Shown here in pieces: positions 14,819-37,820 of a stretch of 44,784 bases of DNA (within the stretch, counting starts at the first letter, position 1; the number at the start of each line of letters is the position of its first letter). This DNA is from Escherichia phage TL-2011b. The notes below the pieces were generated by a model. The model did no database searches. It was not told the DNA's origin and saw only the letters and a program-made list of their open reading frames with translations. The stretch is from sequence record JQ011317. The stretch is one strand, 5' to 3'. The position numbers and the translations under genes are program-made.

Positions 14819-14833
14819 TTACCTGAAAGGTAA
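14819..14833. promoter_or_regulatory. TTACC-N5-GGTAA site in the tRNA-portal intergenic region
   Basis: TTACCTGAAAGGTAA, 91 bp upstream of the 14924 ORF. Confidence 0.4.
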
Positions 14834-14923
14834 TAATTTGTGCGTTAAATGTCAACTATCTACGATAAATAAATCATATGTGGTTAAATTGGTAATAATT
14901 TAATTGCGTACGGAGTCATTGAT

Positions 14924-15130: not shown

Positions 15131-15144
15131 CCGGAGTCATTGAA

Positions 15145-16824
15145 ATGGCGGAAACAACTAAAGAGCGATTGAACAAACAGTTCGCACAACTTGAAAGCGA
15201 GCGTCAGTCGTTCGAGCCGCACTGGCGCGAGTTGAGTGATTACATCAACCCGCGTGGTTCCCGCTTTCTGACTTCTGAGGTCAACCGTAACGATCGACGC
15301 AATACACGCATTATTGATTCGACCGGGACTATGGCGGCGCGCACTCTCGCCAGCGGCATGATGTCAGGCATCACAAGCCCCGCGCGTCCGTGGTTTCGCC
15401 TGGCTACGCCAGATCCTGAAATGATGGATTATGGCCCTGTTAAGTTGTGGCTTGAGGCGGTGCAGAACCGCATGAATGATATGTTCAATAAGTCGAATCT
15501 CTACCAGTCTCTTCCGCAGTTATACGGAAGCCTCGGCACATACAGCACTGGTGCAATGGCGGTGCTGGAGGATGACGAGGACATCATTCGCACAATGCCA
15601 TTCCCGATAGGTAGTTACTACTTGGCTAACTCACCTCGTGGCAGTGTGGACATCTGTTTTCGCAAGTTCTCTATGACTGTTCGTCAGCTTGTTCAGGAGT
15701 TCGGGCTAAATAACGTCAGCGAATCCGTAAAAAGCATGTGGGAAAGTGGCACCTACGAGAAGTGGATTGAGGTGATGCATTCGGTTTACCCGAACATTGA
15801 CCGCGATACATCGAAGCTGGATAGCAAGAACAAGCCATTCAAATCGGTTTATTACGAGGTTGGCGGCGATAACGACAAGTTGTTGCGTGAGTCCGGATTC
15901 GATGAGTTTCCAATTATGGCTCCGCGCTGGGAAGTTAACGGCGAAGATGTTTATGGATCATCATGCCCGGGTATGCTGGCGCTTGGACCTGTTAAGGCAT
16001 TGCAGCTTCTTCAGAAGCGCAAGTCGCAGTTGATTGATAAAGCCACCAATCCGCCGATGGTTGCTCCGACTTCCCTCAAGAATCAGCGCGCCTCCCTTCT
16101 TCCTGGCGACATCACGTATATCGATCAGATTACTGGTCAGGATGGTTTCAGGCCTGCTTATCTGGTTAACCCCAGTACAGCAGATCTGGTAGCAGACATT
16201 CAGGACACTCGTCAAATCATTAACAGCGCCTACTTTGTCGATCTGTTCATGATGTTGCAGAACATCAATACCCGCTCGATGCCTGTTGAAGCGGTGATCG
16301 AAATGAAAGAAGAAAAACTTCTGATGTTGGGGCCGGTTCTGGAGCGTCTGAACGACGAATGTCTTAATCCTCTCATTGACCGCGCTTTCTCGATGATGGT
16401 GCGTAAAAACATGCTGCCGCCACCGCCTGACGCGATGGAAGGCATGCCCCTGAAGGTCGAATACATTTCCGTCATGGCTCAGGCGCAGAAGTCTATCGGC
16501 CTGTCCAGTCTGGCGTCCACGGTTAACTTCATTGGTCAACTTGCGCAAGCGAAACCAGAAGCTCTCGACAAACTCAACGTTGATCAGGCGATCGATGCAT
16601 TCGCTGATATGTCCGGAGTGTCTCCAACCGTCATTGTTCCGCAGGAACAGGTTGATCAGGCTCGCCAGCAACGGGCACAGCAGCAACAGCAGCAACAAAT
16701 GATGGCGATGGGGATGGCGGCGGCACAGGGTGCCAAGACGCTAAGCGAAGCTAAAACTTCGGATCCGAGTGTTTTGTCAGCTATGGCGAATGCAGTTAGT
16801 GGTCAGGGTGGGCAATCACAATGA
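15145..16824 (+). CDS. Portal protein (T7 gp8-like)
   Basis: 559 aa; Q/A/M-rich C-terminus (QQRAQQQQQQQMMAMGMAAAQG) resembles the T7 portal C-terminus as recalled. Confidence 0.8.
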   Translation: MAETTKERLNKQFAQLESERQSFEPHWRELSDYINPRGSRFLTSEVNRNDRRNTRIIDSTGTMAARTLASGMMSGITSPARPWFRLATPDPEMMDYGPVKLWLEAVQNRMNDMFNKSNLYQSLPQLYGSLGTYSTGAMAVLEDDEDIIRTMPFPIGSYYLANSPRGSVDICFRKFSMTVRQLVQEFGLNNVSESVKSMWESGTYEKWIEVMHSVYPNIDRDTSKLDSKNKPFKSVYYEVGGDNDKLLRESGFDEFPIMAPRWEVNGEDVYGSSCPGMLALGPVKALQLLQKRKSQLIDKATNPPMVAPTSLKNQRASLLPGDITYIDQITGQDGFRPAYLVNPSTADLVADIQDTRQIINSAYFVDLFMMLQNINTRSMPVEAVIEMKEEKLLMLGPVLERLNDECLNPLIDRAFSMMVRKNMLPPPPDAMEGMPLKVEYISVMAQAQKSIGLSSLASTVNFIGQLAQAKPEALDKLNVDQAIDAFADMSGVSPTVIVPQEQVDQARQQRAQQQQQQQMMAMGMAAAQGAKTLSEAKTSDPSVLSAMANAVSGQGGQSQ

Positions 16825-17117
16825 CAGATTACGAAGACGATCAACTGAAAGAAGAAAACGCCCGTAAGCAACGTGACATGGCACAGCGTGAAATTGATGA
16901 CATTCGCTTTGTCATGAGCAGTGAACAGGGGCGTCGCGTTGTCTGGTCTGTGCTGGAGAAAGGCCGGGTGTTTTCCGCTATCTCTCCGATGGATGCTATG
17001 GCAATGGCATTTAATGAGGGGCAACGCAATCTGGCGCTGGAACTGTTTCAGCGCGTTATGGCTCATTGCCCTGAACAGTATTTGAAGATGGCCAAAGAGG
17101 CCAGTGAACAGGAGTGA
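16821..17117 (+). CDS. Hypothetical head-module protein (98 aa)
   Basis: ATGA-coupled to the portal gene. Confidence 0.45.
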   Translation: MTDYEDDQLKEENARKQRDMAQREIDDIRFVMSSEQGRRVVWSVLEKGRVFSAISPMDAMAMAFNEGQRNLALELFQRVMAHCPEQYLKMAKEASEQE

Positions 17118-17119
17118 TC

Positions 17120-17815
17120 ATGAATTTATTTGAGCGTTTGCTGTATCGCCGTCTTTGCAATGAGCAACCAGTCGATGGTGGAGCAGCTCCGGCTGCGTCA
17201 GAACCGTCAGCGCCTGCAGGTGATAACCCTGCTCCAGTTGGTGATCCATCACAACAGGAAGGTGATAAGCCACAACCTGTTGCTGATGGCGATAAACCTG
17301 CTGATGACAAAAAGCCTGAAAACGATAAGCAGGATGAAAAAAAGGACGGCGATAAACCAGAGGGTGCGCCTGAGAAGTACGAGTTTCAGGCTGCCGAAGG
17401 CGTAGAGCTGGATACAGAAGCGTTGAAGGAGTTCGAGCCGGTGGCGCGAGAACTTAACCTGACCAACGAGCAAGCGCAAAAGCTGGTTGATGCTTATCCG
17501 AAGATTCTGGCAGGTGTGCAGCAGCGCCAGGCAGAAGCCTGGCAGAAAACAACCGAGCAGTGGGCTGCTGATGTAAAAGCTGACAAAGAAATCGGTGGCG
17601 ACAAGTTGATTTCTAACCTTAGCGCCGCACAGCGTGCGCTTGACCAGTTCGGGACACCTGAGCTCAAAGAATATCTGAACACCACCGGACTGGGTAATCA
17701 CCCTGATCTGGTCAAGACGTTCGTGAAAATCGGAAAGGCGATGTCTGAAGATGGCATGGTCACCGGTGGTAATGAAGGCCAGCGTAGTGCGGCCGAAGTG
17801 CTCTATGGCAAATAA
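17120..17815 (+). CDS. Putative scaffolding protein
   Basis: Acidic, Pro/Asp/Lys-rich N-terminal half, coiled-coil C-terminal half; between portal and capsid genes. Confidence 0.5.
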   Translation: MNLFERLLYRRLCNEQPVDGGAAPAASEPSAPAGDNPAPVGDPSQQEGDKPQPVADGDKPADDKKPENDKQDEKKDGDKPEGAPEKYEFQAAEGVELDTEALKEFEPVARELNLTNEQAQKLVDAYPKILAGVQQRQAEAWQKTTEQWAADVKADKEIGGDKLISNLSAAQRALDQFGTPELKEYLNTTGLGNHPDLVKTFVKIGKAMSEDGMVTGGNEGQRSAAEVLYGK

Positions 17816-17823
17816 GAGAGGAA

Positions 17824-18816
17824 ATGACAATGGCTGTTAAAGGCTTAACTGCGCTAACGCTGGCTGACTGGGGTAAGCGCGTCGATCCAAACGGGAAAGT
17901 CGATAAGATTATCGAGCTTCTCGGTCAAACTAACCCGATCCTTCAGGATATGCCTTTTGTCGAAGGGAACCTTCCTACCGGACACCGAACCACCATTCGT
18001 TCTGGTTTACCTTCAGCTACCTGGCGTTTGCTGAACTATGGCGTACAGCCAAGCAAATCAACCACAGTGCAGGTGACCGATTCCGTTGGCATGCTGGAAA
18101 CCTATGCTGAAGTCGATAAGTCACTGGCTGATCTGAACGGCAATACCGCCGAATTCCGCCTGTCTGAAGACCGCGCATTTATTGAAGCGATGAATCAGCA
18201 GATGGCGCAGACGCTGTTTTATGGTGATTCCAGCGTTAACCCTCAGCAGTTTATGGGACTGTCCTCCCGCTATTCCAGCCTGTCTGCGGGTAATGCTCAG
18301 AACATCATTGATGCTGGTGGCACGGGTACAGATAACACCTCTATCTGGTTAGTGGTGTGGGGCGAAAACACCGTGCATGGCATCTTCCCGAAAGGGCAGA
18401 AGGCTGGCATCCAGATGGAAGATAAAGGCCAGGTGACACTGGAAGATGCGAATGGCGGCAAGTACGAAGGCTACCGTACCCATTACAAATGGGACAACGG
18501 GCTTGCTCTGCGTGACTGGCGTTATGTTGTTCGCATTGCAAACATCGATGTCAGCAATCTTTCAGAACCTTCCTCTGCAGCAAATATTGCGAAGTTGATG
18601 GTTAAAGCACTGCATCGCATTCCAAACCGTGGCATGGGCCGCCCGGTGTTCTACATGAACCGCACTGTAGGCCAGGCTCTTGATCTGCAATCTCTGGAGA
18701 AAACATCTCTGGCGATCAGCGTAAAAGAGACAGAAGGCGAGTGGTGGACTTCATTCCGTGGTGTACCAATCCGTGAGACTGATGCGCTTCTGGAAACAGA
18801 AGCCCGTGTGGTGTAA
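17824..18816 (+). CDS. Major capsid protein
   Basis: 330-aa ORF in the T7 gp10 position after the scaffold gene. Confidence 0.65.
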   Translation: MTMAVKGLTALTLADWGKRVDPNGKVDKIIELLGQTNPILQDMPFVEGNLPTGHRTTIRSGLPSATWRLLNYGVQPSKSTTVQVTDSVGMLETYAEVDKSLADLNGNTAEFRLSEDRAFIEAMNQQMAQTLFYGDSSVNPQQFMGLSSRYSSLSAGNAQNIIDAGGTGTDNTSIWLVVWGENTVHGIFPKGQKAGIQMEDKGQVTLEDANGGKYEGYRTHYKWDNGLALRDWRYVVRIANIDVSNLSEPSSAANIAKLMVKALHRIPNRGMGRPVFYMNRTVGQALDLQSLEKTSLAISVKETEGEWWTSFRGVPIRETDALLETEARVV

Positions 18817-18867
18817 CGCCTGTTATTAACCTGTGGGTCGTAACAGACCCACTAATGGAGAAAGAAG

Positions 18868-19305
18868 ATGATCACCGACAAACTGTTGATGTTCTCCGAA
18901 GCTCAGGCGGTTACGAATACCGCGGCTTCTACTGACGTAATCGATCTCGGTCCAATTGACGGAAAACGTCGTGATATCGGCGTGGGTTACCCGCTTGAGT
19001 TTTGGGCGCTGGTTAACACAGCCGCCGCGGCAAGCGGTGATGCAACTGTAAACATCCAGTTGCAGACGAGTGAGAATAACAGCTCATGGACCACTATTTA
19101 TGATAGTGGCGCACTGGCAAAGACCGCCCTGACAGCAGGTAAACGAGTTGTTTCTGCAAAGGTGCCTGCCGGTGTTCAGCGATATCTGCGTGTTAACTAC
19201 TCCGTCGCAACTGGCCCACTAACGGCTGGCGAATTCACTGCTGGTATCAGTCTTGATGTTGATGCCAATACGCCGTATCCGATCCGCTCAAAAGTAACTG
19301 GTTAA
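18868..19305 (+). CDS. Hypothetical virion protein (145 aa)
   Basis: GGAGAAAG Shine-Dalgarno; position after the capsid gene. Confidence 0.45.
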   Translation: MITDKLLMFSEAQAVTNTAASTDVIDLGPIDGKRRDIGVGYPLEFWALVNTAAAASGDATVNIQLQTSENNSSWTTIYDSGALAKTALTAGKRVVSAKVPAGVQRYLRVNYSVATGPLTAGEFTAGISLDVDANTPYPIRSKVTG

Positions 19306-19315
19306 GGTGATATCG

Positions 19316-19651
19316 ATGTCAGGTGAGAAACCAAGATACCGCGTTCTGCGCCTCTCTCATATCCATAACACTCTGTGGCCGGAGGGGGCAGAAATCGAAT
19401 ACGAAGGTGAGCCTGGTAGCGCACTGGAACCTGTTAACGATGCAGCCAGACAGGCAAAAGCAAAAGTTGCAGGAAAGGTGTCAATGGCAGCAACCAGCAC
19501 CAAAATCATCAACGATGTGTCAGATGATGGTGAACTGGATAAGCTCCGTGAAGAGTACGAATTGCTCTTTAACGAGAAGCCACACCATAACGCCAAAGCT
19601 GAAACGCTCCGCGAGAAGATCGCAGATAAGCGTAAAGAACTGGGCGTGTAA
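19316..19651 (+). CDS. Hypothetical virion-associated protein (112 aa)
   Basis: ATG at 19316 with AAGGTGA Shine-Dalgarno. Confidence 0.4.
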   Translation: MSGEKPRYRVLRLSHIHNTLWPEGAEIEYEGEPGSALEPVNDAARQAKAKVAGKVSMAATSTKIINDVSDDGELDKLREEYELLFNEKPHHNAKAETLREKIADKRKELGV

Positions 19652-19667
19652 GCCTCGCGAATCAGAC

Positions 19668-19689
19668 AAGGGGCTTCGGCCCCTTTATT
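19668..19689 (+). terminator. Intra-operon terminator/attenuator after the capsid gene block
   Basis: Stem GGGGC / GCCCC, loop TTCG, then TTTATT. Confidence 0.5.
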
Positions 19690-19701
19690 GCAGGAGTGTA
19701 T

Positions 19702-20025
19702 ATGGAACTCGTAAACCTCAAAACCGGCACTGACAGCTACCAGGATGAGAGCGGAGAAACCAGAACTCGCGATGAATACCCATGGGGGCTGTGCATCACT
19801 CTTAATAACGACACATTGAATAAGCTGAAGGCGCAACCTAAGGGCGTCGGAACGGAAGTGATGATAACTGCAAAGGCTGTTATTCGAGGCCTGTCTGCCA
19901 GAGAAACTGACGATGGTGTCAATCGCAGCGCCGATCTGCAGATCACTGATATGGCGATCGCTCCTGTTTCCGGGGGTGTAGAAAAATCAGCGGCTGAAAC
20001 TCTGTACGGTAACGGAGGTGAGTGA
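19702..20025 (+). CDS. Hypothetical virion protein (107 aa)
   Basis: ATG at 19702 with AGGAG Shine-Dalgarno; coupled to the next gene. Confidence 0.4.
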   Translation: MELVNLKTGTDSYQDESGETRTRDEYPWGLCITLNNDTLNKLKAQPKGVGTEVMITAKAVIRGLSARETDDGVNRSADLQITDMAIAPVSGGVEKSAAETLYGNGGE

Positions 20026-20630
20026 TGGCCTCTGTAGTAGAGATCTGTAATCGTGCGCTGTCCAATATTGGCAACAGTCGCAGCATTAACAGCCTGACGG
20101 AAGCCAGCAAGGAAGCGGGGGAATGTTCGCTGCACTTTGAGGCCTGCCGTGATGCTGTTCTTTCTGATTTTGACTGGAACTTTGCTACCAAACGCGTGGC
20201 GCTTGCAGATACGAGCAATCCACCGCCTGACTGGGAATATGCGTACCAGTACCCGTCCGATTGTCTGCGCATTACTGAAATTATGCTTCCTGGTGTACGC
20301 AATCCAACAGCAGCAATGCGCGTTCAGTACGAAGTTGGTGCAGACACCAACGGAACAGGAAAGTTGATCTACACAGACCAGCCGCAGGCATGGCTCAAGT
20401 ATGTATCTCGCGTTTCAGATGTGAACATGTTTGATGCCATTTTTATGGAGGCGTTGGCCTGGCGTCTTGCGGCAGCTATTAACATGGCGCTGACTGGGAA
20501 TGCAGACCTCGGTACGTTTGCCCTCAATATGTACAATCGCGTGATTCTTAGTGCTGGCTCGCATAGCCAGAATGAATCACAGGAACCACAGCCACCGGTT
20601 GACGAGTTTACCATTGCGAGGTTGTCCTGA
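20025..20630 (+). CDS. Tail tubular protein A-like (T7 gp11 position)
   Basis: About 200 aa, directly before an 823-aa gene, mirroring T7 gp11/gp12; GGAGG Shine-Dalgarno. Confidence 0.45.
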   Translation: MASVVEICNRALSNIGNSRSINSLTEASKEAGECSLHFEACRDAVLSDFDWNFATKRVALADTSNPPPDWEYAYQYPSDCLRITEIMLPGVRNPTAAMRVQYEVGADTNGTGKLIYTDQPQAWLKYVSRVSDVNMFDAIFMEALAWRLAAAINMALTGNADLGTFALNMYNRVILSAGSHSQNESQEPQPPVDEFTIARLS

Positions 20631-23101
20631 TGGCTATCAGTTGGATCCAGCCCAGCTTTGCCGGTGGTGAGATTGGACCGTCGTTGTACGGTCGTATCGA
20701 CATGGCGAAGTACCAGGTGGCATTGCGCAAGTGCGATAACTTTATCGTGCGGCAGTATGGCGGCGTTGAGAATCGACCTGGTACGCGTTTTGTCGGTGCC
20801 GCCAAATACCCAAATCGGAAATGCCGCCTGATCCCGTTCCAGTTCTCGACGGTTCAGACTTATGCTCTGGAGTTCGGACACCAGTACATGCGCGTTATCA
20901 AAGATGGTGCGTTGGTGCTGAACAGCAGCAATGTTATTTATGAAATTGCCACGCCATATACTGAAGCCGATCTGTTCCGAATTAAATTCACGCAAAGCGC
21001 TGACGTGCTTACGCTGGTTCACCCGGCATACCCGCCGAAAGAGTTGCGGCGCTATGCGCATGACAACTGGCAACTTGTTGATGTGGTAACGAAGAACGGG
21101 CCATTTGAAGATATCAATATTGACGAGTCAGTGACGGTTTATGCCAGCGCCAGCACCGGGACAATTACGTTAACGGCAAACGCCTCTATTTTTGGCGCGG
21201 AACAGGTAGGCAAATTGTTCTATCTGGAACAGCCAGCAGTGGATTCAGTACCGGTATGGGAAACCAGTAAGAGTACGTCGATTGGCGATATTCGCCGTGC
21301 AGACAGTAACTACTATCGCGCTGTTACGGCAGGTAAAACAGGCACTTTGCGCCCTTCGCATACAGAAGGCACATCATGGGATGGCTGGGGCGGATCCGGA
21401 GATGATGATACTGGCATTGAGTGGGAATATCTGCACAGTGGTTTTGGCATTGCCCGTATCACTGCTGCAAATGGAACTACTGCAACTGCCGAGGTGATTT
21501 CCTATATCCCTTCTCAGGTAGTTGGCGAGGATAATGCTAGCTATAAATGGGCTAAATATGCCTGGAACAGTGTTAATGGTTATCCTGGCACTGTTGTTTA
21601 TTATCAACAACGTCTTTACTTCGCCGCATCTACTGCGTTCCCTCAGACTATCTGGGCCAGCCGTACTGGGGATTATAAGGATTTTGGCAAAAGCAATCCT
21701 ACGCAGGATGACGACAGAATTATCTACACCTATGCCGGGCGTCAGGTTAATGAGATCCGCCACCTGATTGATGTCGGTTCGCTGGTGGCACTGACTTCCG
21801 GAGGTGAGTACGTCATCACCGGCGACCAGAACAAAGTGTTAACCCCATCATCATTTGCATTCAGCTCTCAAGGATCAAATGGCTCGAGCAATGTCCCACC
21901 AATTGCCGTGGCGAATATTGCTCTGTTCGTCCAGGAGAAAGGCAGTGTTGTCCGTGATCTGGCCTACTCATTCGATGTTGACGGCTATCAGGGGAACGAC
22001 CTGACCATCCTTGCCAATCATCTTTTTCAGAAGCACAGCATTGTTGACTGGTGCTTCTCTATTGTCCCTTACTCCAGCGCCTTCTGCATTCGTGATGACG
22101 GTAAATTACTGGTGATGACCTATTTGCGTGATCAGCAGGTTTTTGCATGGGCACCACAATCCAGTACCGGAAAATATGAAAGCACATGCAGTATCAGCGA
22201 AGGCAATGAAGATGCGGTGTATTTCGTCGTTAACCGAACCGTTAACGGGCAAACAGTGAGATACATCGAGCGACTGTCCAGCCGTTTATTTACCAGCGAT
22301 GAAGATGCTTTCTTTGTTGATTCTGGCCTTAGTTATGATGGAAGAAATACGTCTGACAGAACGATGACCATCACTGGTGGTTCTGGTGAATGGGATTACC
22401 GTGCGGAATATACAATCAGTGTTTCTGGTGGTGCGTACTTCACCAGTAGTGATGTCGGCGCGCAACTACAGTTCCCTTATACCGGAACTGATCCTGATAC
22501 TGGCGATGAAGTGTCAAAAGAATTACGTTGCGACATTATTTCTGTAACCAGCAATACCGCAGTAGTGGTTCGTGCTAACAGGAACGTCCCGTCATCCCTC
22601 AGGAATGTGGCCACCACGAACTGGCAGATGGCGCGCCGGACATTTGGAGGCCTGTCTCATCTTGAAGGCCAGACCGTAAACATTCTCTCTGATGCGAACG
22701 TGGAACCACAGAAAGTAGTTTCCGGAGGTACCGTCACGCTGGAATCTCCGGGGGCTGTAGTGCACATCGGCCTGCCAATAACTGCTGAATTCGAAACACT
22801 GGATATCAACATTAGCGGACAGGAAACGCTGCTGGACAAAAAACAGGTGATCCCGTCAGTTACTCTGGTTGTGAATGCCAGTCGCGGCATCTGGGCGACT
22901 ACGCCCGGCGGTAAATGGTACGAATATCCACAGCGAGAATTCGAGTTCTACGATGATCCTGTTGATGATGCTACCGGAAAAGTAGAAGTGAAACTGGACA
23001 GTAACTGGGGCAAAAACGGACGTGTAAAAATCCGTCAGCTTGACCCGTTGCCGCTGTCTGTTCTTGCCGTTATTCCTCGCCTTACTGTTGGGGGATTCTG
23101 A
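20630..23101 (+). CDS. Tail tubular protein B-like (T7 gp12 position)
   Basis: 823-aa ORF, size and position as T7 gp12. Confidence 0.5.
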   Translation: MAISWIQPSFAGGEIGPSLYGRIDMAKYQVALRKCDNFIVRQYGGVENRPGTRFVGAAKYPNRKCRLIPFQFSTVQTYALEFGHQYMRVIKDGALVLNSSNVIYEIATPYTEADLFRIKFTQSADVLTLVHPAYPPKELRRYAHDNWQLVDVVTKNGPFEDINIDESVTVYASASTGTITLTANASIFGAEQVGKLFYLEQPAVDSVPVWETSKSTSIGDIRRADSNYYRAVTAGKTGTLRPSHTEGTSWDGWGGSGDDDTGIEWEYLHSGFGIARITAANGTTATAEVISYIPSQVVGEDNASYKWAKYAWNSVNGYPGTVVYYQQRLYFAASTAFPQTIWASRTGDYKDFGKSNPTQDDDRIIYTYAGRQVNEIRHLIDVGSLVALTSGGEYVITGDQNKVLTPSSFAFSSQGSNGSSNVPPIAVANIALFVQEKGSVVRDLAYSFDVDGYQGNDLTILANHLFQKHSIVDWCFSIVPYSSAFCIRDDGKLLVMTYLRDQQVFAWAPQSSTGKYESTCSISEGNEDAVYFVVNRTVNGQTVRYIERLSSRLFTSDEDAFFVDSGLSYDGRNTSDRTMTITGGSGEWDYRAEYTISVSGGAYFTSSDVGAQLQFPYTGTDPDTGDEVSKELRCDIISVTSNTAVVVRANRNVPSSLRNVATTNWQMARRTFGGLSHLEGQTVNILSDANVEPQKVVSGGTVTLESPGAVVHIGLPITAEFETLDINISGQETLLDKKQVIPSVTLVVNASRGIWATTPGGKWYEYPQREFEFYDDPVDDATGKVEVKLDSNWGKNGRVKIRQLDPLPLSVLAVIPRLTVGGF

Positions 23102-23565
23102 TGATCGATGTTCAAATTATTCCCGCTACCGAAGAGCATCTTCAGATGATTTTGCCGGATGTTCGTCAGGCTGATATTGACGAACTGTATGCGGTATCGC
23201 TGATGACTACCGAAGATGCGCTGCGTGTTGGTCTGCGCACTGCGACTATGGCCTGGTCAGGGTTCGCGAACGGAGAACTGGTAACCATGTTTGGCGTATC
23301 TCCGGCGTCAATGATCGGTGGCAATGGTACGCCCTGGCTTGTCGGGACCAGCCGTATTGAAAAATATCAGAAGACATTTCTTCGCCACTGCCGACCTGTA
23401 TTGCAGCAGATGCTGGCAGTTTATCCGCGCCTGGAAAACTACGTCGACGAGCGAAACCATGTTGCCAAAGCATGGTTGCACTGGCTTGGATTCAGGCTTG
23501 AAGAAGCCGCGCCTTATGGTGCTCTTGGTCTTAATTTCCACAGATTTCACATGGAGAGAAAATAA
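23101..23565 (+). CDS. Internal virion protein (gp13 position)
   Basis: 154-aa ORF coupled to tail genes. Confidence 0.4.
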   Translation: MIDVQIIPATEEHLQMILPDVRQADIDELYAVSLMTTEDALRVGLRTATMAWSGFANGELVTMFGVSPASMIGGNGTPWLVGTSRIEKYQKTFLRHCRPVLQQMLAVYPRLENYVDERNHVAKAWLHWLGFRLEEAAPYGALGLNFHRFHMERK

Positions 23566-24110
23566 TGTGCGATCCGGTTATTGCTGGTGGCGCAATGCTC
23601 GCCATGAGTGGCATTCAGGCATACACCCAGTACCAACAGGGAAAATATGCCTCGAAGGTTGCAGAAGCGAACGCAGATATAGCCACTGCTCAGGCAAATG
23701 ATGCAATAAACAGGGGTAACGCTGAAGCTGAGCAACGGCGCAGAGAGACCCGACAGCGGCTTGGTACACAGGCGGCGACAATGGGGGCGACCGGCGCTGA
23801 TTTATCTACCGGTAATGCGCTGGATATATTTGGCGACGCTGCCCAGTTTGGCGCTCTTGATTCTCTGACGACGGTGAATAACGCGCAACGCGAGGCTTAC
23901 GGTTATCAGGTTCAGGCTGCCAACTATAAAGCAGAAGCCAGTTCAGCCCGTAAACAGGGGAATGTGGGAGCAGCAACAACATTGCTCACTGCGCCTCTGA
24001 AGGCATACGGTGCGTACCAGATGTTTGGTGGGACGTGGAGTCCGTTTACTCAAAGCACCCCTGCGCCAATCGGGGCAGCAGCAGGAACCAGATTACCCGG
24101 AGGATTATAA
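23565..24110 (+). CDS. Internal virion protein (gp14 position)
   Basis: 181-aa Ala/Gly/Gln-rich ORF. Confidence 0.4.
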   Translation: MCDPVIAGGAMLAMSGIQAYTQYQQGKYASKVAEANADIATAQANDAINRGNAEAEQRRRETRQRLGTQAATMGATGADLSTGNALDIFGDAAQFGALDSLTTVNNAQREAYGYQVQAANYKAEASSARKQGNVGAATTLLTAPLKAYGAYQMFGGTWSPFTQSTPAPIGAAAGTRLPGGL

Positions 24111-26827
24111 TGCCAGTCGTACCAACAGTATCAGGACGTCAGGTTGAGAGTCGTGGTGTACAAACCGGTGGTTTTCAGACCTTCGATGTTCCTCAAGCAG
24201 GTCAGGTGCTGGCGAATGTCGCAGATCAGTATGCGGTGGCATATGGTGAAGCCAGGCAGAAAGCGAATGTTGCATTGTCTCAGGATGCCATCCTTCAGCT
24301 TAATCAGCGCAGCAATGAACGTCTTTATAACCCTCAAACCGGTTTTTATGCACAACAAGGCAAAAATGCGATTGGTAAGGGGCAAGAGTACATATCTGGA
24401 TTTGATCAGGATGTGGAAGAAATAGCTGCTTCATTGACTGATGAAGCAGCAAGAAATATGTTTTTGCAACAAGCCAGAACACAGAAAATTCAGTTCAGTA
24501 CTGGAGTTCTCAGACATGAGATAGGGCAGACAAATGCCTATGAAGATGAGCAATATCAGGCAACGAGAAAATTATGGATACAAAATGAAGCGGATGCCTG
24601 GAATGACCCGCAAACTGCCACTTTAGCCAGAAATTCCAGAATGGTAGCCATTGCCAGATATGGAGCTGCCAGGGGATGGTCACAAGAACGCATTCTGGAA
24701 GAAATAGAAAGTGATGATCGCAGTGCCACAGAAATGCGGGCGAAGAATTATGCCGCTGCCAATCCAGAAGGATGGCTAAATGGTCTGTTTCAGAAAAATG
24801 ATTCTGGAGGCATGGACATGCGTGCCATACGCCTTGTTGAATCAGGTGATCGACATTTTAATCCTGATGGTAGTCTTCTTGAGGGACCGATAACATCTTC
24901 TGGAGAGAGAGCGCAGGGGAAATACCAGTTAATGCCGGGCACAGGAAAAGAACTGGCGGCCAAGCGTGGCGTTGAATACAACCCTACTGACGAACAACAG
25001 CATGAAATGCTCGCCAGTGACTATGTAAATCAACTGTATGGTAAGTACGGTTCCGAAATATTGACCGGAGCAGCATATAACTGGGGGATGGGTAACGTGG
25101 ATAAACTGATCGCCAAAGTCGGTGATCCACGTAAAGGTGAAATATCAGAAGAAGAATTTATCCGAAATCTTCCATCAGAAACACAAGGGTGGCTTTCCCG
25201 ATATAGAAAAAATAAAACTGGAATGGATCCGCTGACTATTTATCAAATAGATAACCTTGCTAATAGTCAGATAGAAAAGCAAAGGAAGTTAATATTAGAA
25301 CAGCTTGAGCCAGCTATTAATAACACCATGGCACAGCTATATAACGGTGAGGTTCCAGATTATATACCGGCTCAGGAGACCATCATCAGGGGGTATGGAA
25401 AAAACGCAGATAAAATAATCAATCAACTGGATATAGCGATTGATAACGCGAGAATATTCCAGGCAATTCAGTATTTGCCTCCTTCTCAGCAGCAAGAAGA
25501 AATGCAGAAAGTGAAGCCTGAGGTTAACGATCCTCACTATGCGTTAAAACTCGATGCTTACGGAAAATTGTCTGCATTGCTTCAGAGATCAAATGAAGCA
25601 ATTCAGGCGCAACGGGATTCACGCAGATTCAATGAGGCGCTGACAATAGGTGAAAAATTAGACCCAAGCAACAAGTCAATGCAGAAAGCTGCTGATTACA
25701 CAGAAATGGCGCAGAACTTTCGTATTAATGATGCCTCCACTCATGATGGGGTTGTTCGGCTTGTGGCTCAGACTGGCATAATGCCTTCGCAGGTCATCAC
25801 GCAGCTTTCAGCAGTATCCCGATCCAGCAATCAGGAAGTGGTTAAAAATGCGGCGGAACTGTTTAGTCGGTTATATGAAACAGACAATGCATCTATTGGA
25901 AATATGCCGAAGGATATGCAGGGTTTTTATCTGACTGTTAAGCAACTAACTGATTCTGGCATGTCTGCTGATGCGGCTATCGAGCAGGCGCAGAACCTTA
26001 CGTACAACCAGACCGATGCTCTTAAAGCTCAATTGGCATCAACGCAGAGTTCAAAAGAGTACAAAAATGATCGCAGCAAGGCGATGAATTCTGCTGTCAG
26101 CAATATGGCGCAGTGGTTCCGTTGGGATCCGTCTGCGGATGACCAGACGCCGGAAGCAGCTAGATTCCGTAATGACTATCAGACGCTGTATGACATTAAC
26201 TACCGCGTTGCTGGTGGTAACGCTGACGTAGCGAAGCAAATGACCAACCAGCAGATAGCCCGCACCTGGAGTATCAGCGAGGTTAACGGAGAAGCGCAGT
26301 TTATGAAATATGCACCGGAGGCGCTTTATCAATATGGGCCGTCAGGCTGGCAGGCGGCGCAGTGGAAAGCTGAAAAAGAACGGCTGATGTACGGTGAGCG
26401 CAAAGAGATTATAACAACCAGTCCGACGTTGCTTGGGATCACGTCAGGTAATGCTCCTGTAGTTGAGACAAAAACCCCTGAGAGTCGTATTAATGGAGAA
26501 TTATTCATAACCCCTGACGTGTTAACACCTCGTAATGGTGATTACGCCATTATGGTAAGAACTAAGGATGAAAATGGCATCGATCGGGTCCAGCCGTTTT
26601 ATAACAAACATGGGCGTCCTATGCGTTGGGAACCATCACTAGAAGATTGGGAACCTTATAAGAAAATGCAGCAGGAATGGGAGCAGTACGAGCAGGAAGA
26701 AATTATGCGTGGACAGGCTATACGAAACTTCAAAGACAAGCATCGCGCTCTGGATGAGCAGTATCAGCGCCTGCATAACGAACGTATGGACAAATTTAAA
26801 GATTACTTTTCGTGGGGATCTAAATAA
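24110..26827 (+). CDS. Internal virion/ejection protein with lytic transglycosylase (SLT) domain
   Basis: ATG at 24110 with GGAGGA Shine-Dalgarno (TAATG overlap); SLT-like motif RLVESG ... GKYQLMPGTG ... AAYNWGMGN. Confidence 0.7.
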   Translation: MPVVPTVSGRQVESRGVQTGGFQTFDVPQAGQVLANVADQYAVAYGEARQKANVALSQDAILQLNQRSNERLYNPQTGFYAQQGKNAIGKGQEYISGFDQDVEEIAASLTDEAARNMFLQQARTQKIQFSTGVLRHEIGQTNAYEDEQYQATRKLWIQNEADAWNDPQTATLARNSRMVAIARYGAARGWSQERILEEIESDDRSATEMRAKNYAAANPEGWLNGLFQKNDSGGMDMRAIRLVESGDRHFNPDGSLLEGPITSSGERAQGKYQLMPGTGKELAAKRGVEYNPTDEQQHEMLASDYVNQLYGKYGSEILTGAAYNWGMGNVDKLIAKVGDPRKGEISEEEFIRNLPSETQGWLSRYRKNKTGMDPLTIYQIDNLANSQIEKQRKLILEQLEPAINNTMAQLYNGEVPDYIPAQETIIRGYGKNADKIINQLDIAIDNARIFQAIQYLPPSQQQEEMQKVKPEVNDPHYALKLDAYGKLSALLQRSNEAIQAQRDSRRFNEALTIGEKLDPSNKSMQKAADYTEMAQNFRINDASTHDGVVRLVAQTGIMPSQVITQLSAVSRSSNQEVVKNAAELFSRLYETDNASIGNMPKDMQGFYLTVKQLTDSGMSADAAIEQAQNLTYNQTDALKAQLASTQSSKEYKNDRSKAMNSAVSNMAQWFRWDPSADDQTPEAARFRNDYQTLYDINYRVAGGNADVAKQMTNQQIARTWSISEVNGEAQFMKYAPEALYQYGPSGWQAAQWKAEKERLMYGERKEIITTSPTLLGITSGNAPVVETKTPESRINGELFITPDVLTPRNGDYAIMVRTKDENGIDRVQPFYNKHGRPMRWEPSLEDWEPYKKMQQEWEQYEQEEIMRGQAIRNFKDKHRALDEQYQRLHNERMDKFKDYFSWGSK

Positions 26828-29800
26828 TGCCAGTTTATGCACAAGCTGAAGATCTTAATAACGGACTGATCCCGTCAGGTAATGTTTTGCCGGAACAAAC
26901 TGGGTTTGATGTTGCCCTTCCGGAAGGGGCTAATCCTGAGCCATTGCCACCGGAGCCTTCCGTATGGGGGGCTGCAATGCGACAGAACAATATTCTGGCT
27001 GGTTTTTTCCGACCAGCCAGACAGTTTGAACCGGTCGAAGGTTATAACCCATATGCTGATAAAAATGAGTTGCACGGTTATGAATACTGGGGGGCGAAAT
27101 TTGCAGATTCCCGATCGCCAGAGGAAACGGCGTGGATTAAGCAGCAGATAGATGATGAAAATGAAGACAGACGTTTATTGTCTGATGCTGGCGTAGTTGG
27201 AACTCTTGCCAGTATTGCTGCGGGAATGGATCCGGTTACTGTTGCGTCAATGTTTATCCCCGGTGCTCAAGGAGGGGCACTGGCGCGTATTGGCTCACAG
27301 ATTGCGATTGGTGCTGCCGGTACAGCATTAAGCGAGGTTGTGCTGAATAATCAGCAAATAACACGCTCATGGGGTGAAAGTGCCGCTCACGTTGCAGCGG
27401 GTGCGATGATGAGCGGCGTGTTTGCCAGTGCTGGTGTTGCGCTTTCGCCATCCGTCCGGGCTGCAGCCACGCGTGAGGTTGCTGATGCTCTTGATAATAT
27501 GAGCATTACATCAGCGACTGACAGGGCTGCCGCTTCGCTTTCTGATGGTGGTAGTGTTGGTGCTATGAAAATTGATACAGCGACTCTGGATGATTTAACC
27601 CCTGTTTCCGGTGGGTGGGTTGGAAAGGCTGCATGGAAAGCAGGGAGCTATCTTACTCCTTTGACAAGGTTAATGGAGTCTCCGTCCAAGACAGTGCGAA
27701 AAACAACGCTGGAGTTAGCCGAAAATAATTTCACCCTTAAAGGAAATGAAAGGGGGATTGAAACACCGGTAGCTGTAGAAACCCGTACACGTGGATGGCG
27801 GCGTGAAGAAGCTGCTGTTGTTGTCGGAAATAAACAGGCATACGCAAAGTATAAAGCTGATGGTGGTGACATGAGTTTTGATTCATTTCGTCAGCAGGTT
27901 GGGAATGCTATGCGAAGCGGTGATGTGCATGCTAATCCTGTTGTTCAGGAAACGGCGCAGGCGATGCGAACTGTATTAAATCGGGTGAAGGTTGAAATGC
28001 AAAAGCTTGGTTTATTACCGCCAGATGAAGAACTGAAAGCATTAGGCCAGGCAAGCTATTTTCCACGTATATATAAAGTTGGAAAAATAATCAGTGAACG
28101 CGATAAATTTCGACGTATTTTGGTTGACTGGTGGTCGAGAGGAAATAAAACACTGGATCCTGAGGATGCTGAAATTGCAGCGGATATCGTAATTAATAAA
28201 ATTACTGGTGCTAAGGTTCCACAGGATTTTGTCAGCGTATTTTCTGTAAAAGCCGCAGGTAGTACGAAAGAAAGAACATTAAATGTGCCTGATAGTCTTA
28301 TCAGGGATTATCTTGAAAGTGATGTGAATTACGTGCTGCAACGTCATATCCGTGAAGCGGCAGCAGAAATTGAGTTGACGAGAACATTTGGCAAACGAAC
28401 TATGACTGAGCGTCTGCAATTAATTGAGGACGAATATGACAGTCTGTTACGGGAAGTGCCTGAAAAAATAAAGGCGAAATATGACGAAAGTGTGGCAAAT
28501 CTGAAAGCACGTTATGAGAGCAATGGTGAAGTTGTTCCTCAGGGTAAACTCGATTCATTAATGCGAAAGTACGAAAAGGAATTACGGAAAGAACAGTCCA
28601 GACTTTCAAAATCAAGAGCAAATGATCTCAGAGACATAACAGCATTACGCGATCGTCTTGTTGGTACATATGGTATGCCTGATGATCCGTCTTCGTTTTT
28701 TGTTCGTGCTGGCGCTTTTCTGCGGGATGTGAACTTCACGACCAAACTCGGTGGAATGACAGTATCAGCTATTCCAGATCTGGCCAGAGGGGTTATGGTT
28801 AATGGTTTCCGTAACACCATGAAAGGCTATGCTTCTCAGATATCCCAATCACCGGCATTTAAGGCCAGCAAAGAAGAGATGTTGAAGATGGGGATTGGAT
28901 TGGAAGCTGTACTACATTCACGTTCTCGTGCAATTGGTGATCTTGTTGACAGTTCTTCCAGGACAACAGCAGTCGAAGCAGGAATGGAGCGAATTACTGA
29001 TGCCTTCGGCAAGCTGACACTCATGGATCGATTTAATGACATAAACAAATCCATGAACGGAATGCTCACGTCAGACGGTATTTTGTCTGGTGCGTTTTCT
29101 GCACGTCGCATGGCAAAACTCGGTATCAACGACAATATGGCTGCGCGTATTCGCAGTGAGTTCGAGAAACATGGTGAGGTAATTGATGGATGGCACATTG
29201 GTAACTTTGATAAATGGGACGATCAGTACGTTGCCGGAGTATTCCAGTCAGCGGTTCTGAAAGACGTTAATAACACTATCATCACCCCCGGTATTGGTGA
29301 CACACCTTTATGGGCGAGTACTCCAATGGGGCGAACGATATTTCAGTTTAAATCATTCACAACGGCTTCATACAACCGTGTGCTACTTGGTGGGTTACAG
29401 GAAGGAACTGCGCAATTTTATTATGGCACTGCATTTCAGATTGCTCTTGGCTCACTGGTCTATGCGCTAAAAGAAGCATCGAAAGGGAAAAATGTTGACT
29501 GGTCACCAGAGAAGCTGGTGCTTGAGGGTATAGATAGATCCGGTATTCTTGGGCCATTGATGGAATATAACAACATGGCTGAAAAGGCTACTGGTGGTGC
29601 TGTTGGGCTGGGGGCTTTATTTGGCACTGGCACACAGTCTAGGTATGCCAGTCGTGGATTCGTAGGATCTCTATTCGGACCGTCATTTGGTCTTGCGGAT
29701 AGCATCATTGATGTGACCGCAGGAGTGTTGAATGGTGATGCCGGTGATCGTATTGTGCATAATGTCCGAACCCTGATACCCGGCAATAACCTGTTCTGGA

Positions 29801-29841
29801 TTGCGCCACTAATAAACCAGGTGGATCCGGTGATGCGGTGA
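26827..29841 (+). CDS. Large internal virion/ejection protein (gp16 position)
   Basis: 1004-aa ORF coupled to the SLT protein gene. Confidence 0.5.
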   Translation: MPVYAQAEDLNNGLIPSGNVLPEQTGFDVALPEGANPEPLPPEPSVWGAAMRQNNILAGFFRPARQFEPVEGYNPYADKNELHGYEYWGAKFADSRSPEETAWIKQQIDDENEDRRLLSDAGVVGTLASIAAGMDPVTVASMFIPGAQGGALARIGSQIAIGAAGTALSEVVLNNQQITRSWGESAAHVAAGAMMSGVFASAGVALSPSVRAAATREVADALDNMSITSATDRAAASLSDGGSVGAMKIDTATLDDLTPVSGGWVGKAAWKAGSYLTPLTRLMESPSKTVRKTTLELAENNFTLKGNERGIETPVAVETRTRGWRREEAAVVVGNKQAYAKYKADGGDMSFDSFRQQVGNAMRSGDVHANPVVQETAQAMRTVLNRVKVEMQKLGLLPPDEELKALGQASYFPRIYKVGKIISERDKFRRILVDWWSRGNKTLDPEDAEIAADIVINKITGAKVPQDFVSVFSVKAAGSTKERTLNVPDSLIRDYLESDVNYVLQRHIREAAAEIELTRTFGKRTMTERLQLIEDEYDSLLREVPEKIKAKYDESVANLKARYESNGEVVPQGKLDSLMRKYEKELRKEQSRLSKSRANDLRDITALRDRLVGTYGMPDDPSSFFVRAGAFLRDVNFTTKLGGMTVSAIPDLARGVMVNGFRNTMKGYASQISQSPAFKASKEEMLKMGIGLEAVLHSRSRAIGDLVDSSSRTTAVEAGMERITDAFGKLTLMDRFNDINKSMNGMLTSDGILSGAFSARRMAKLGINDNMAARIRSEFEKHGEVIDGWHIGNFDKWDDQYVAGVFQSAVLKDVNNTIITPGIGDTPLWASTPMGRTIFQFKSFTTASYNRVLLGGLQEGTAQFYYGTAFQIALGSLVYALKEASKGKNVDWSPEKLVLEGIDRSGILGPLMEYNNMAEKATGGAVGLGALFGTGTQSRYASRGFVGSLFGPSFGLADSIIDVTAGVLNGDAGDRIVHNVRTLIPGNNLFWIAPLINQVDPVMR

Positions 29842-35715: not shown

Positions 35716-37809
35716 ATGACGGTCTCAACCGAAGTTGACCACAACGAATACACCGGTAACGGTGTTACAACGACATTCCCTTATACCTTCAGGATTTTCC
35801 AGAAATCTGATTTAGTAGTGCAGGTTGTTGACCTGAACGAGAACATCACAGAGCTGATTCTTGACACTGATTACATAGTTACTGGGGCTGGAGGATACAA
35901 TGGTGGCAATATAATTCTGTCGAAGGCATTGGTTAGCGGTTATCTGATTTCTATATCACGAGAGCTCCCGGTTACGCAGGAAACTGATTTGCGTAATCAG
36001 GGTAAGTTCTTTGCAGAAGTGCATGAGGATGCTTTTGATAAGCTAACGATGCTGATCCAGCAGGTTCGAAGTTGGTTTAGCTTGGCGCTGCGTAAGCCGT
36101 CATTCGTGGCAAATTATTATGATGCGCTTAACAATTACATCAGAAACTTACGCGATCCTTCAACCCCCCAAGATGCAGCCACTAAAAATTATGTTGATAC
36201 ACAGCTCAGTTCTAACCTGGGGTGTACTTTGCGCGTTCAGGAGCAGATACCGCAACTTCCTGATGCTGCCTCCCGCGCAAACAAGATGCCTGCTTTCGAT
36301 AACGATGGTAACCCTATTGTTGTGCTTCCTCCATCAGGGTCTGCGTCTGACGTATTGATCGAGCTAGCCAAGCCAACTGGATCTGACTTGGTTGGTTATG
36401 GGTCACAGACGGTTAAAGCAACCCTTGATAGCCTGAATAGCATGCGGGAGGAGCTTCTTGATAAAACAGGATTTAATGCGCTGGGGCGCTTCCTTAATCT
36501 TTCAGAGCTTCGCTCCTGTGTTCCGGAGGAGGCAGGGCAGATTGTATACGTAGCATCAGCAGCTAGCACTACACATGCTGAAAACCACCTTGGTGGCGGC
36601 TTTTTCGAGTCTGTTGATAACATTCAGGCGTGGGCTGATGATGGTGGAATTGTAATCAAGCCAGAAACTGGAACGATGGTATGGAGACGAATTAATTTTA
36701 CCACTTACGACATGCAATTTTGGGGGGTGAAACCTGACGGAGTCACAGATAACGCAACAGCTATAACTCTTGCAACTAACTTTGCTCGCTCAAACAAATG
36801 CATTCTAGAGGCTCCTGCTGGAAACATAAATACATCAAAAACAATCCCAATTTATGACAATATGGGAATTAGAGGACAGGGAAAGGCTGAAGCGACAGTT
36901 TTTTATAAAACAACAAATGACAAAATAGATCTCACAAAAAATGGAGAAGTAATTCTTCAGGTGGATGCATTATGTGCTTTTATACCAAAGCAATGGGATC
37001 TAACAGATAACTCAATTAGTTCATTTTGTGTTAACGGTAGAGTTGAAAACTGCATGTTTAGAAGGCTTGGCTTAACACAAGAAAATGTAGATTCTTATAG
37101 AAATTATTACGGACTGTTTTTAGGAAAATCAGCAGCACCAGTTATCAGACAGTCAATTTTTGAATGTGCTTATATCGGATGCTTCTCTTATGTGCCGTTC
37201 TCTGGCGTAATGGAAATGGTCGGTTTCCCACAATATCCAGGGAAAGGATATGCTGGAGTTTTGTTTGAAGATTTTAGGGATGGTCAAATAAAAGTAATTG
37301 GCACTTCTATGGATATGCGCCTTGTTCAAGTTAATGGTTACCAGTTGTCATTTAGAATGTCCGGGATGCAATATACTACCATGACCAATTGTACAGCTGA
37401 AAACTGCACGCCAATGGATGGGGAATCAACTTGCTACGCATTTGATTTTGTAAATCCGTATTGCATTGTCATGAATACTTGTGCAACAGAATTTGTTAAA
37501 GGGGGGCAATTGCGTGTTAGCGTTCAGGGAAACCCATCATTCCGCCCATCTATTATTGTCAATGGCTTTCTACCAATTGACCAACAAAGTCCAGTAGTGC
37601 AAACACCTATAATTGATATTGACAATGGTGGTGTTGTTGAAATGAGTGTCATATTGAATGGTGGTGATTGGGCAATAAATCCATCGGCTGTAAATTTAAC
37701 TTCTCCAAAAGCAAGTGGTAATGGGTTGAAGGTAAGATTGATCGGTGTAAATGGCTCTCCTTCTTCGGTGTGGAGTGCGTCTTCTGGTGCAGAAGTAAGG
37801 GAGTTCTAA
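35716..37809 (+). CDS. Tailspike / tail fiber protein
   Basis: 697 aa; N-terminal virion-attachment-type domain followed by a long beta-rich C-terminal region; GGAGA Shine-Dalgarno. Confidence 0.65.
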   Translation: MTVSTEVDHNEYTGNGVTTTFPYTFRIFQKSDLVVQVVDLNENITELILDTDYIVTGAGGYNGGNIILSKALVSGYLISISRELPVTQETDLRNQGKFFAEVHEDAFDKLTMLIQQVRSWFSLALRKPSFVANYYDALNNYIRNLRDPSTPQDAATKNYVDTQLSSNLGCTLRVQEQIPQLPDAASRANKMPAFDNDGNPIVVLPPSGSASDVLIELAKPTGSDLVGYGSQTVKATLDSLNSMREELLDKTGFNALGRFLNLSELRSCVPEEAGQIVYVASAASTTHAENHLGGGFFESVDNIQAWADDGGIVIKPETGTMVWRRINFTTYDMQFWGVKPDGVTDNATAITLATNFARSNKCILEAPAGNINTSKTIPIYDNMGIRGQGKAEATVFYKTTNDKIDLTKNGEVILQVDALCAFIPKQWDLTDNSISSFCVNGRVENCMFRRLGLTQENVDSYRNYYGLFLGKSAAPVIRQSIFECAYIGCFSYVPFSGVMEMVGFPQYPGKGYAGVLFEDFRDGQIKVIGTSMDMRLVQVNGYQLSFRMSGMQYTTMTNCTAENCTPMDGESTCYAFDFVNPYCIVMNTCATEFVKGGQLRVSVQGNPSFRPSIIVNGFLPIDQQSPVVQTPIIDIDNGGVVEMSVILNGGDWAINPSAVNLTSPKASGNGLKVRLIGVNGSPSSVWSASSGAEVREF

Positions 37810-37820
37810 CTATACAAACA

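Follow-up and report, generated by a model that had tools for sequence, protein, structure and literature searches.

Positions 15145-29841 of Escherichia phage TL-2011b as a probable phiV10/epsilon15-type virion operon with a minority two-gene form of the injection-protein cassette

The window analysed here is the whole 44,784-nucleotide stretch of Escherichia phage TL-2011b (sequence record JQ011317). Its positions 15145-29841 are, almost certainly, the late (virion) operon of a temperate podovirus of the phiV10/epsilon15 type, lying in or beside the genus Uetakevirus and carried in an Escherichia coli prophage of about 41.3 kb. The phage type is ordinary and long described, and the sole twist is a minority, two-gene form of the injection-protein cassette. 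The original prediction had spoken of a T7-like virion module inside a lambdoid, integrase-bearing prophage, with the architecture of temperate epsilon15/phiV10-type podoviruses rather than of a lytic T7-like phage. The placement is borne out by comparison of the whole window, which shows a phiV10-type prophage; the expression “T7-like” needs a narrower meaning.

The best DNA matches are phiV10-type phages throughout, for the module and for the window alike. DNA is 98% identical to phiV10 from upstream of the portal gene to the gp14-like gene (98.1% over the match at 14233-24183), and outside this stretch the integrase, recombination, replication, terminase and lysis regions remain 88-97% identical; with the head-tail region included, eleven segments are collinear with phiV10 at 88-98% DNA identity. 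At the protein level, the 13 products from the small terminase subunit through the gp14-like protein are 98-100% identical to their phiV10 counterparts, and the lysis genes, the integrase and the guaA attachment (att) core agree as well. The same genome organisation is found in phiV10 and its E. coli relatives ZX5, HEMP4, phiv142-3, PAS61 and the O157 typing phages 9 and 10, of which ZX5 and HEMP4 match more of the early region than phiV10 does in DNA comparison. The differences from phiV10 lie in the large core genes (p18, p19 and p20, of 837, 600 and 824 amino acids (aa), where the window has two genes of 906 and 1004 aa), in the C-terminal part of the tailspike and the acyltransferase gene, and in the additions of an Arc/antirepressor region, a YafO-like toxin gene and a 203-aa open reading frame (ORF).

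Epsilon15, a Salmonella phage and the type species of the group (structures 3j40 and others), has the same gene order from gp1 to gp14, including the Bbp16-like gp8 and the staple protein gp10, but three large core genes (gp15, gp16 and gp17) instead of two. Protein identity to epsilon15 is 80.5% for the portal (gp4), 84.6% for the adaptor, 88% for the nozzle, 94% for the large terminase subunit and 77% for gp14. It falls to 35-43% in the capsid block at 17830-20025 (major capsid protein, cement, gp9-like and staple proteins), against 80-88% for the flanking portal and tail genes, a pattern of mosaicism within the genus.

The interval 15145-29841 holds 13 plus-strand ORFs running in one direction, mostly with start/stop overlaps of 1 or 4 bases and otherwise with short gaps. 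They were assigned by Pfam, NCBIfam equivalog (capsid), PHROG and PDB matches as follows:

15145..16824, plus strand: portal (head-to-tail connector), 559 aa; PF12236 E 3e-186, PDB 8ck0 “Portal protein” E 5e-178
16821..17117, plus strand: Bbp19-like small protein, 98 aa; PF25181 Phage_Bbp19 E 2.8e-17, 99% identical to phiV10 p08
17120..17815, plus strand: candidate scaffolding protein, 231 aa, acidic, between portal and capsid; database label “protease”/“peptidase”
17830..18816, plus strand: major capsid protein of the epsilon15 gp7/BPP-1 family (HK97 fold), 328 aa; PF20911 GP7 E 2e-149
18868..19305, plus strand: capsid cement/decoration protein of the Bbp16 family, 145 aa; PF21190 Bbp16 E 5e-47
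19316..19651, plus strand: epsilon15 gp9-like small protein, 111 aa; phrog_590 E 4e-61
19702..20025, plus strand: capsid staple protein of the epsilon15 gp10 family, 107 aa; PF21628 Gp10-like E 6e-51, PDB 3j40_N gp10 1e-20
20025..20630, plus strand: adaptor, tail tubular protein A analogue, 201 aa; PDB 8ck1_E “Connector Protein” 2.9e-26
20630..23101, plus strand: tail nozzle, tubular protein B analogue, 823 aa; PDB 8ck1_A “Tail Nozzle” 4.5e-218, phrog_376 “tail protein”
23101..23565, plus strand: homologue of T7 gp13 (internal virion protein (IVP) A), 154 aa; phrog_308 E 9e-63, 99% identical to phiV10 p16
23565..24110, plus strand: core/ejection protein of the T7 gp14 (IVP-B) family, 181 aa; PF24072 T7_gp14 28.9 bits, cut-off 27
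24107..26827, plus strand: large internal virion protein with an SLT domain, 906 aa; divergent homologue of phiV10 p18/epsilon15 gp15, in the position of T7 gp15
26827..29841, plus strand: internal virion protein of the T7 gp16 (IVP-D) family without an SLT domain of its own, 1004 aa; phrog_342 E 4.8e-210

The portal is 98.7% identical to phiV10 p07, and its PHROG matches (332/449) are reciprocal with T7 gp8. Its C-terminus, which had been singled out as glutamine-rich and T7 gp8-like, indeed has 16 glutamines among the final 64 residues, including a run of seven, and the tail QARQQRAQQQQQQQMMAMGM aligns to the Q-rich tail of T7 gp8, EEQKQQKMAQQSMQMGM.

The capsid protein, 99.7% identical to phiV10 p10 and only 43% to epsilon15 gp7, is recognised by the NCBIfam equivalog NF045672 MCP_gp7_epsi_15 (E 9e-124) and matches the solved structures 3j4u_A (BPP-1 major capsid protein, 9.5e-129), 3j40_A (epsilon15 gp7, 2e-85) and 8cjz. 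By sequence score it is nearer the BPP-1 structure than that of epsilon15, and it is 86% identical to the major capsid protein of Salmonella prophage L005. The cement protein likewise matches 3j4u_H “cementing protein” (1.5e-25) and 8cjz_B “Capsid Decoration Protein” (1.6e-22). For both proteins the top solved-structure matches are thus chains of the capsid of BPP-1, a Bordetella phage with which the window also shares Bbp19- and Bbp16-family genes. BPP-1 differs in host and in the rest of its genome; no tropism-switching cassette was seen in the window, which possesses a gp10-type staple in addition. This staple, whose orthologue is named “capsid staple protein” by PGAP, occurs together with the epsilon15 gp7-family capsid protein, as in 3j40 (chains A and N; NF045672, PF20911 and PF21628). 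The gp9-like protein is 100% identical to phiV10 p12 and 40% to epsilon15 gp9, and an ORF overlapping its gene in another frame (19323-19733) has no family match in Pfam or PHROG. When the portal and capsid were checked for siphovirus or myovirus affinities, the best matches proved to be podovirus proteins, namely epsilon15 gp7 (3j40), the BPP-1 major capsid protein (3j4u) and the 8ck0 portal. A literature search on the codes 8CK0, 8CK1 and 8CJZ did not identify the source phage of these entries.

The protein between portal and capsid, in the position of T7 gp9, is more difficult to name. Its first ~95 residues are rich in P, D, A, E and K, and a single-sequence AlphaFold2 model (pLDDT 45) gives the weak hint of a disordered N-terminus followed by helices without strands. 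Phrog_458, labelled “protease”, matches it at E 2e-111; no Pfam peptidase family matches even at E 10, and the PDB search returned no solved relative. An HK97-fold capsid protein of 328 aa is too short for a delta domain. From its position, composition and the low-confidence model, the 231-aa protein may be regarded as a candidate scaffold. The expected succession of scaffold and capsid after the portal is present in position, the former in a presumed role, and neither belongs to the corresponding T7 families: gp9 (PF05396) and gp10 (PF21703) are not matched by the two proteins in Pfam or BLASTP.

Downstream, the genes noted earlier for their gp11/gp12-like size match chains of 8ck1 as adaptor and nozzle, and their T7 link comes from published epsilon15 work alone. 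The adaptor matches phrog_394 “tail protein” and, at 1e-17, phrog_9239 “tail tubular protein”; the RefSeq note of epsilon15 gp11 records an HHpred match to T7 tubular protein A (3j4b). Pfam, PHROG and BLASTP connect neither the adaptor with T7 gp11 (PF17212) nor the nozzle with T7 gp12 (PF25675). For the latter pair, strong matching between hidden Markov models (E<1e-10) has been reported for the epsilon15 gp12 group (Hardies et al., PMC4819975).

The internal virion proteins open with two members of T7 families. T7 gp13 matches the same phrog_308 (E 1e-42) as the 154-aa protein, which scores below threshold in PF11090 (13.6 bits), and T7 gp14 matches the same PF24072, whose cut-off the 181-aa protein passes narrowly; PGAP names the orthologue of the latter “virion core protein, T7 gp14 family”. 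Immediately afterwards the resemblance to phiV10 breaks off: DNA similarity reaches no further than 24183, some 77 bases into the first large core gene, and resumes only at about 32011. The three large core genes that follow the gp14 homologue in epsilon15 and phiV10 are absent here and two are found. This count does not exclude membership of the group, because the number of core genes varies within the wider group.

The first of the two genes most likely starts at 24107, giving 906 aa, rather than at the GTG at 24035. The SLT-domain internal virion protein anticipated from the sequence is well substantiated, with a Pfam SLT (PF01464) score of 30.1 bits against a cut-off of 21.3 and all three transglycosylase motifs intact (E245-S, GKYQLM at 271 and AYNWG at 323; the T7 gp16 counterparts are E37-S, GMMQ and AYNQG). 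Phrog_1044 matches the protein end to end. BLASTP against phiV10 p18 aligns aa 2-249 only, at 45% identity, and in epsilon15 gp15 only the first ~250 aa are similar (43%), but a family profile of 48 sequences aligns with p18 over the full length (hhalign Prob 100%, E 3e-60). The idea that the cassette swap had brought in an SLT domain that phiV10 lacks, as the absence of a Pfam match in p18 might suggest, was rejected, because p18 residues 246-393 match PHROG transglycosylase families, the alignment of p18 to the 906-aa family spans this region, and the record note of epsilon15 gp15 refers to a match with a lytic transglycosylase. A muralytic domain on the protein preceding the gp16 homologue has already been described for K1E and K1-5, and ejection proteins are known to be mosaic (PMC8954989).

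The second gene product covers positions 203-1225 of phrog_342, that is, all but the N-terminal transglycosylase part (T7 gp16 itself scores 1354 bits over positions 4-1227), and shows weak collinear BLASTP matches to T7 gp16. With phiV10 p20 it is linked by hhalign (Prob 95%, E 3.4e-8) and with p19 not at all. Being homologous to p20 and not to p19, it leaves this allele without a protein of the epsilon15 gp16/phiV10 p19 type. The 1004-aa protein is nearer the T7 gp16 family profile than phiV10's own gp16-family member; phiV10 p20 matches phrog_684 and not phrog_342. In epsilon15, gp17 has been identified as the IVP-D (T7 gp16) homologue, and an IVP-C homologue could not be confirmed (Hardies et al., PMC4819975).

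Several points weigh against the assignment of the interval to a phiV10/epsilon15-type virion operon, or against parts of it. The blastn segments shared with phiV10 sum to ~24.9 kb of the 41.3 kb (roughly 58%) at ~96% identity, and at E 1e-10 blastn pairs about 40% of the prophage with nothing in phiV10, so that formal membership of the genus is provisional; in the practice of the International Committee on Taxonomy of Viruses, genus level corresponds to ~70% nucleotide identity across the whole genome. Viability and podovirus morphology of the prophage are presumed from its relatives. Naming the 231-aa protein a scaffold goes against its database label “protease”, and the connection of adaptor and nozzle with T7 depends on the literature and on record notes for epsilon15 orthologues that are 85-88% identical. 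Modelling the nozzle with AlphaFold2 from 17 close homologues yielded nothing usable (mean pLDDT 38); the best 120 homologues listed are all at least 82% identical, too uniform a set for a diverse alignment. The 48-sequence profile of the 906-aa family finds no homology to T7 gp15 (hhalign Prob 5%), making the two proteins equivalent by position only. Finally, the Arc-family gene (30880-30975, minus strand) adjoining a P22-type antirepressor has an extra G near 30914, after codon 9, in comparison with the 97%-identical prophage of E. coli 13E0780, leaving as its remnant only a 113-aa ORF (30507-30848) without the N-terminal ribbon-helix-helix strand. The frameshift could be a real inactivation, possibly derepressing the antirepressor or affecting regulation, or else a sequencing error.

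The damaged Arc gene, together with an insertion of ~855 bp upstream of the tailspike region, lends some colour to the view that the element is a defective, cryptic remnant unable to form particles. This appears improbable, though not negligibly so, given that all 13 virion ORFs, both terminase subunits and the integrase, repressor, replication and lysis genes are full length, that the comparable genes are 98-100% identical to those of the functional phage phiV10, and that the right-end att core is intact. The same Arc gene and the antirepressor, whose N-terminal domain is of the P22 type, adjoin the module and could instead recall a P22-like lambdoid podovirus prophage of the P22, Sf6 or HK620 kind, such phages being temperate podoviruses that likewise have a tailspike and a gene for O-antigen modification; the early and accessory regions, with their many short DNA matches to Stx and lambdoid phages, point in this direction too. 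The virion genes leave very little room for such a reading, as the portal, capsid, cement, staple, adaptor and nozzle are nearest to epsilon15-type, BPP-1-type or 8ck-series proteins, the 1004-aa protein belongs to the T7 gp16 PHROG, and the top DNA matches of the whole module are all phiV10-type.

As regards T7 itself, the order portal, scaffold, capsid, adaptor, nozzle, gp13, gp14, large protein and gp16 is common to T7 genes 8-16 and the window, and both have SLT-type muralytic motifs. The claimed T7 gene order therefore stands from the portal to the gp16-like gene, interrupted by four small head genes that T7 lacks (Bbp19-like, Bbp16-type cement, gp9-like and gp10-type staple). In T7, moreover, the SLT domain lies at the N-terminus of gp16, and here on the protein preceding the gp16 homologue. 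The shared families are those of the portal (PF12236, with gp8), gp13 (phrog_308), gp14 (PF24072) and gp16 (phrog_342); capsid and scaffold belong to epsilon15/BPP-1 families, and it is in this respect that a “T7-like” module was too broad a description. Of the module proteins, all compared with T7 by BLASTP and phmmer, none reached significance apart from the two large ones, which match gp16 weakly, so pairwise similarity cannot support the term, which denotes family-level or literature-level homology and synteny rather than close similarity. The relationship covers the portal, tail and ejection proteins, not the head shell, and is ancient. In earlier work the divergence of the phage group from T7 was found to be ancient and the epsilon15 capsid and terminase were placed with siphovirus lineages (Hardies et al., PMC4819975). 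The window differs further in its temperate life style and in having no T7 promoters and, as had been expected, no phage RNA polymerase: tblastn with T7 gp1 over the window does no better than E 0.37, and there is no unassigned large ORF. That a structural module of T7-like (Autographiviridae) phages was recently captured by a lambdoid prophage, producing a fresh lytic/temperate hybrid, is scarcely credible, for although the gene order parallels T7 genes 8 to 16 and the portal, gp13, gp14 and gp16 families are common to both, BLASTP to T7 is non-significant apart from the weak gp16 matches, the capsid, scaffold, adaptor and nozzle fall in Pfam/PHROG families other than those of T7 gp10, gp9, gp11 and gp12, the entire element with its early genes is collinear with phiV10 at 88-98%, and the block is present in 502 complete E. 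coli genomes and its divergence from T7 is ancient (PMC4819975).

Among 5426 complete E. coli genomes, the head-tail block was found in 502, the phiV10-type cassette in 317 and the two-gene cassette, counted as present when its DNA was covered to at least 80%, in 45. The allele is not new: it is already in databases, and PGAP already names the 906-aa gene “transglycosylase SLT domain-containing protein”. Relatives of the 1004-aa protein at 73-80% identity are common in Salmonella, Citrobacter, Serratia, Enterobacter and Yersinia, and its prophage relatives are 75-97% identical. In the collection searched, no isolated, characterised phage has the allele, and its best matches among isolated phage genomes are 29-36% identical (32-36% for the 1004-aa protein); work on it in a cultured phage seems not to exist. 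Epsilon15-like prophages of Salmonella, Citrobacter and Serratia (e.g., loci L005 and L006) carry the same two-gene core cassette and the same order as here: gp14-like protein, SLT protein (896 aa, 71%), gp16-like protein (963 aa, 75%), Arc, antirepressor, tailspike and lysis genes. They differ in their hosts and in 25-30% sequence divergence of the cassette. Phage EC.W1-9 has another two-gene version, of 915 and 1129 aa; at least three alleles of the large core-protein cassette exist within one phage type. The cassette is accompanied by the Arc/antirepressor region, and its putative left recombination joint coincides with the end of phiV10 similarity inside the first large core gene. It is tempting to suppose that the two genes form a functionally distinct ejection apparatus exchanged as a unit among epsilon15-type phages of several enterobacterial genera, a proposal that we put forward tentatively and consider somewhat less probable than its opposite.

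The surroundings of the operon have the following features:

192..1439, plus strand: tyrosine integrase, P4-type; PF00589, PF13356
11544-12218, plus strand: terminase small subunit; PF03592
12215-13690, plus strand: terminase large subunit; 98.6% identical to phiV10 p02, phrog_2 match
14420-14496, minus strand: tRNA-Arg (anticodon TCT), between terminase and portal operon
14821..14835, plus strand: operator-like palindrome TTACCTGAAAGGTAAT, upstream of the virion operon; found as repeat family D2 and by motif scan
35716..37809, plus strand: tailspike, 697 aa, with a conserved N-terminal head-binding part and a different receptor-binding part
37880-38986, plus strand: acyltransferase-3 gene following the tailspike, G+C ~34%
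41251-41267: att core ATTGAGTGGGAATGATT at the right end of the prophage; one occurrence, none expected by chance

The att core equals the attP/attB core reported for Uetakevirus ZX5, a phage whose integration site is the guaA 3' end (PMC9782041). Host DNA with E. coli yfgI-yfgH-yfgG-pdeF follows on its right, and on this sequence evidence the prophage sits at the guaA/yfgI site, at the 3' end of guaA. From the positions of the integrase, the att core and the host flank it follows that the window begins at the left end of the ~41.3-kb prophage. Two terminator-like hairpins, 88% identical, lie at 41-72, just inside the left prophage end, and at 41289-41320, just outside the right end; one possibility is that the phage brings along a copy of the terminator that follows guaA. 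This direct repeat was considered as the att core and rejected, being a hairpin pair beside the att site.

The early genes are of the lambdoid kind, as had been stated for regulation and replication: they encode the tyrosine integrase, a helix-turn-helix repressor, RecT, a PD-(D/E)XK nuclease, a DnaT-like protein and a lambda P-family replication protein. The start of the DnaT-like replication gene is duplicated in an 80-base direct repeat (2788-2867 and 6591-6670, 85% identical), of which the copy at 2788-2867 lies inside the leftward early region and adjoins an ORF at 2605-2847. Lysis is represented by two holin-family proteins, a GH19 endolysin and a spanin. The large terminase subunit gave no match to T7 gp19. 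The tRNA-Arg(TCT) between terminase and portal recurs in phiV10, again on the opposite strand, at 2853-2929, where the phiV10 record leaves it unannotated.

The palindrome at 14821-14835 stands about 100 bases upstream of a small ORF preceding the portal gene. Further intergenic copies of the TTACCT-N3-AGGTAAT palindrome occur at 147 (minus strand), 5236, 6333, 34480/34490 and 35599; as a group the sites lie before the integrase, next to the repressor gene, and ahead of both the virion operon and the tailspike (35599-35613). They match the ATTACC-N5-GGTAAT palindromes that the epsilon15 record annotates as repressor-binding sites in corresponding places, including ones upstream of gp3/gp4 and of the tailspike, and by analogy the palindromes here may be viewed as putative repressor operators.

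The region between the core cassette and the tailspike contains several accessory genes. Directly after the cassette, in a region absent from phiV10, is the 203-aa ORF (29853-30464, minus strand; G+C ~40%) with a hydrophobic N-terminus; in PADLOC scans of the accessory ORFs it gave the only match, a marginal TIR-like (ThsB) one at E 0.006, and it may be a moron or a defence gene. A YafO-family toxin-like ORF (32573-33145, minus strand; PF13957 26.1 bits, cut-off 25) lies between the antirepressor and a Bro-N gene. The ~855-bp insertion, at 34408-35262, is absent from phiV10 and from the E. coli 13E0780 prophage. It contains a plus-strand ORF (34513-35241) for a 242-aa protein that starts with a hydrophobic helix, continues through a low-complexity middle and ends in two CxxC...CxxC zinc-ribbon-like repeats; the protein has a sub-threshold match to Pfam Stc1 and no PADLOC match.

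The tailspike is 58% identical to phiV10 p25 over its first ~350 aa only; it has many tail-fibre and spike PHROG matches and a sub-threshold pectate-lyase-like match. From 36199 to 39255, which covers the C-terminal part of the tailspike and the acyltransferase-3 gene, there is no DNA similarity to phiV10, whose O-acetyltransferase, unlike the acyltransferase of the window, is encoded on the opposite strand. These swaps predict an O-antigen specificity and a serotype conversion other than those of phiV10.

By analogy with its homologues, the operon would work in the following way. The head would be assembled from the portal, a separate helical scaffold and the HK97-fold capsid protein of the epsilon15/BPP-1 family, and reinforced by the Bbp16-type cement and the gp10-type staple. 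Adaptor and nozzle would form a short tail that closes the portal and bears the tailspike encoded downstream. The gp13-like protein may aid loading of an internal core, stored in the head and composed of the gp14-like, SLT-bearing and gp16-like proteins. Upon infection these core proteins would be ejected to breach the outer membrane, the peptidoglycan and the inner membrane, creating a trans-envelope channel for the DNA. Late expression probably relies on the host RNA polymerase under control of the prophage repressor, and not on any phage-encoded polymerase.

The element adds a further copy to a prophage type present in ~9% of complete E. coli genomes, and its significance hardly goes beyond correct annotation; the T7-related tail and injection genes of this phage type were described years ago, and the T7 relationship of the group is old knowledge. 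Many of these genes are nevertheless still “hypothetical” or “protease” in public records, although solved structures and family links allow them to be named. The alleles of the core cassette offer a natural setting in which to ask which of the ejection proteins are essential. If the two-gene form does represent a distinct and exchangeable apparatus, the epsilon15 gp16-type protein would be dispensable for channel formation.

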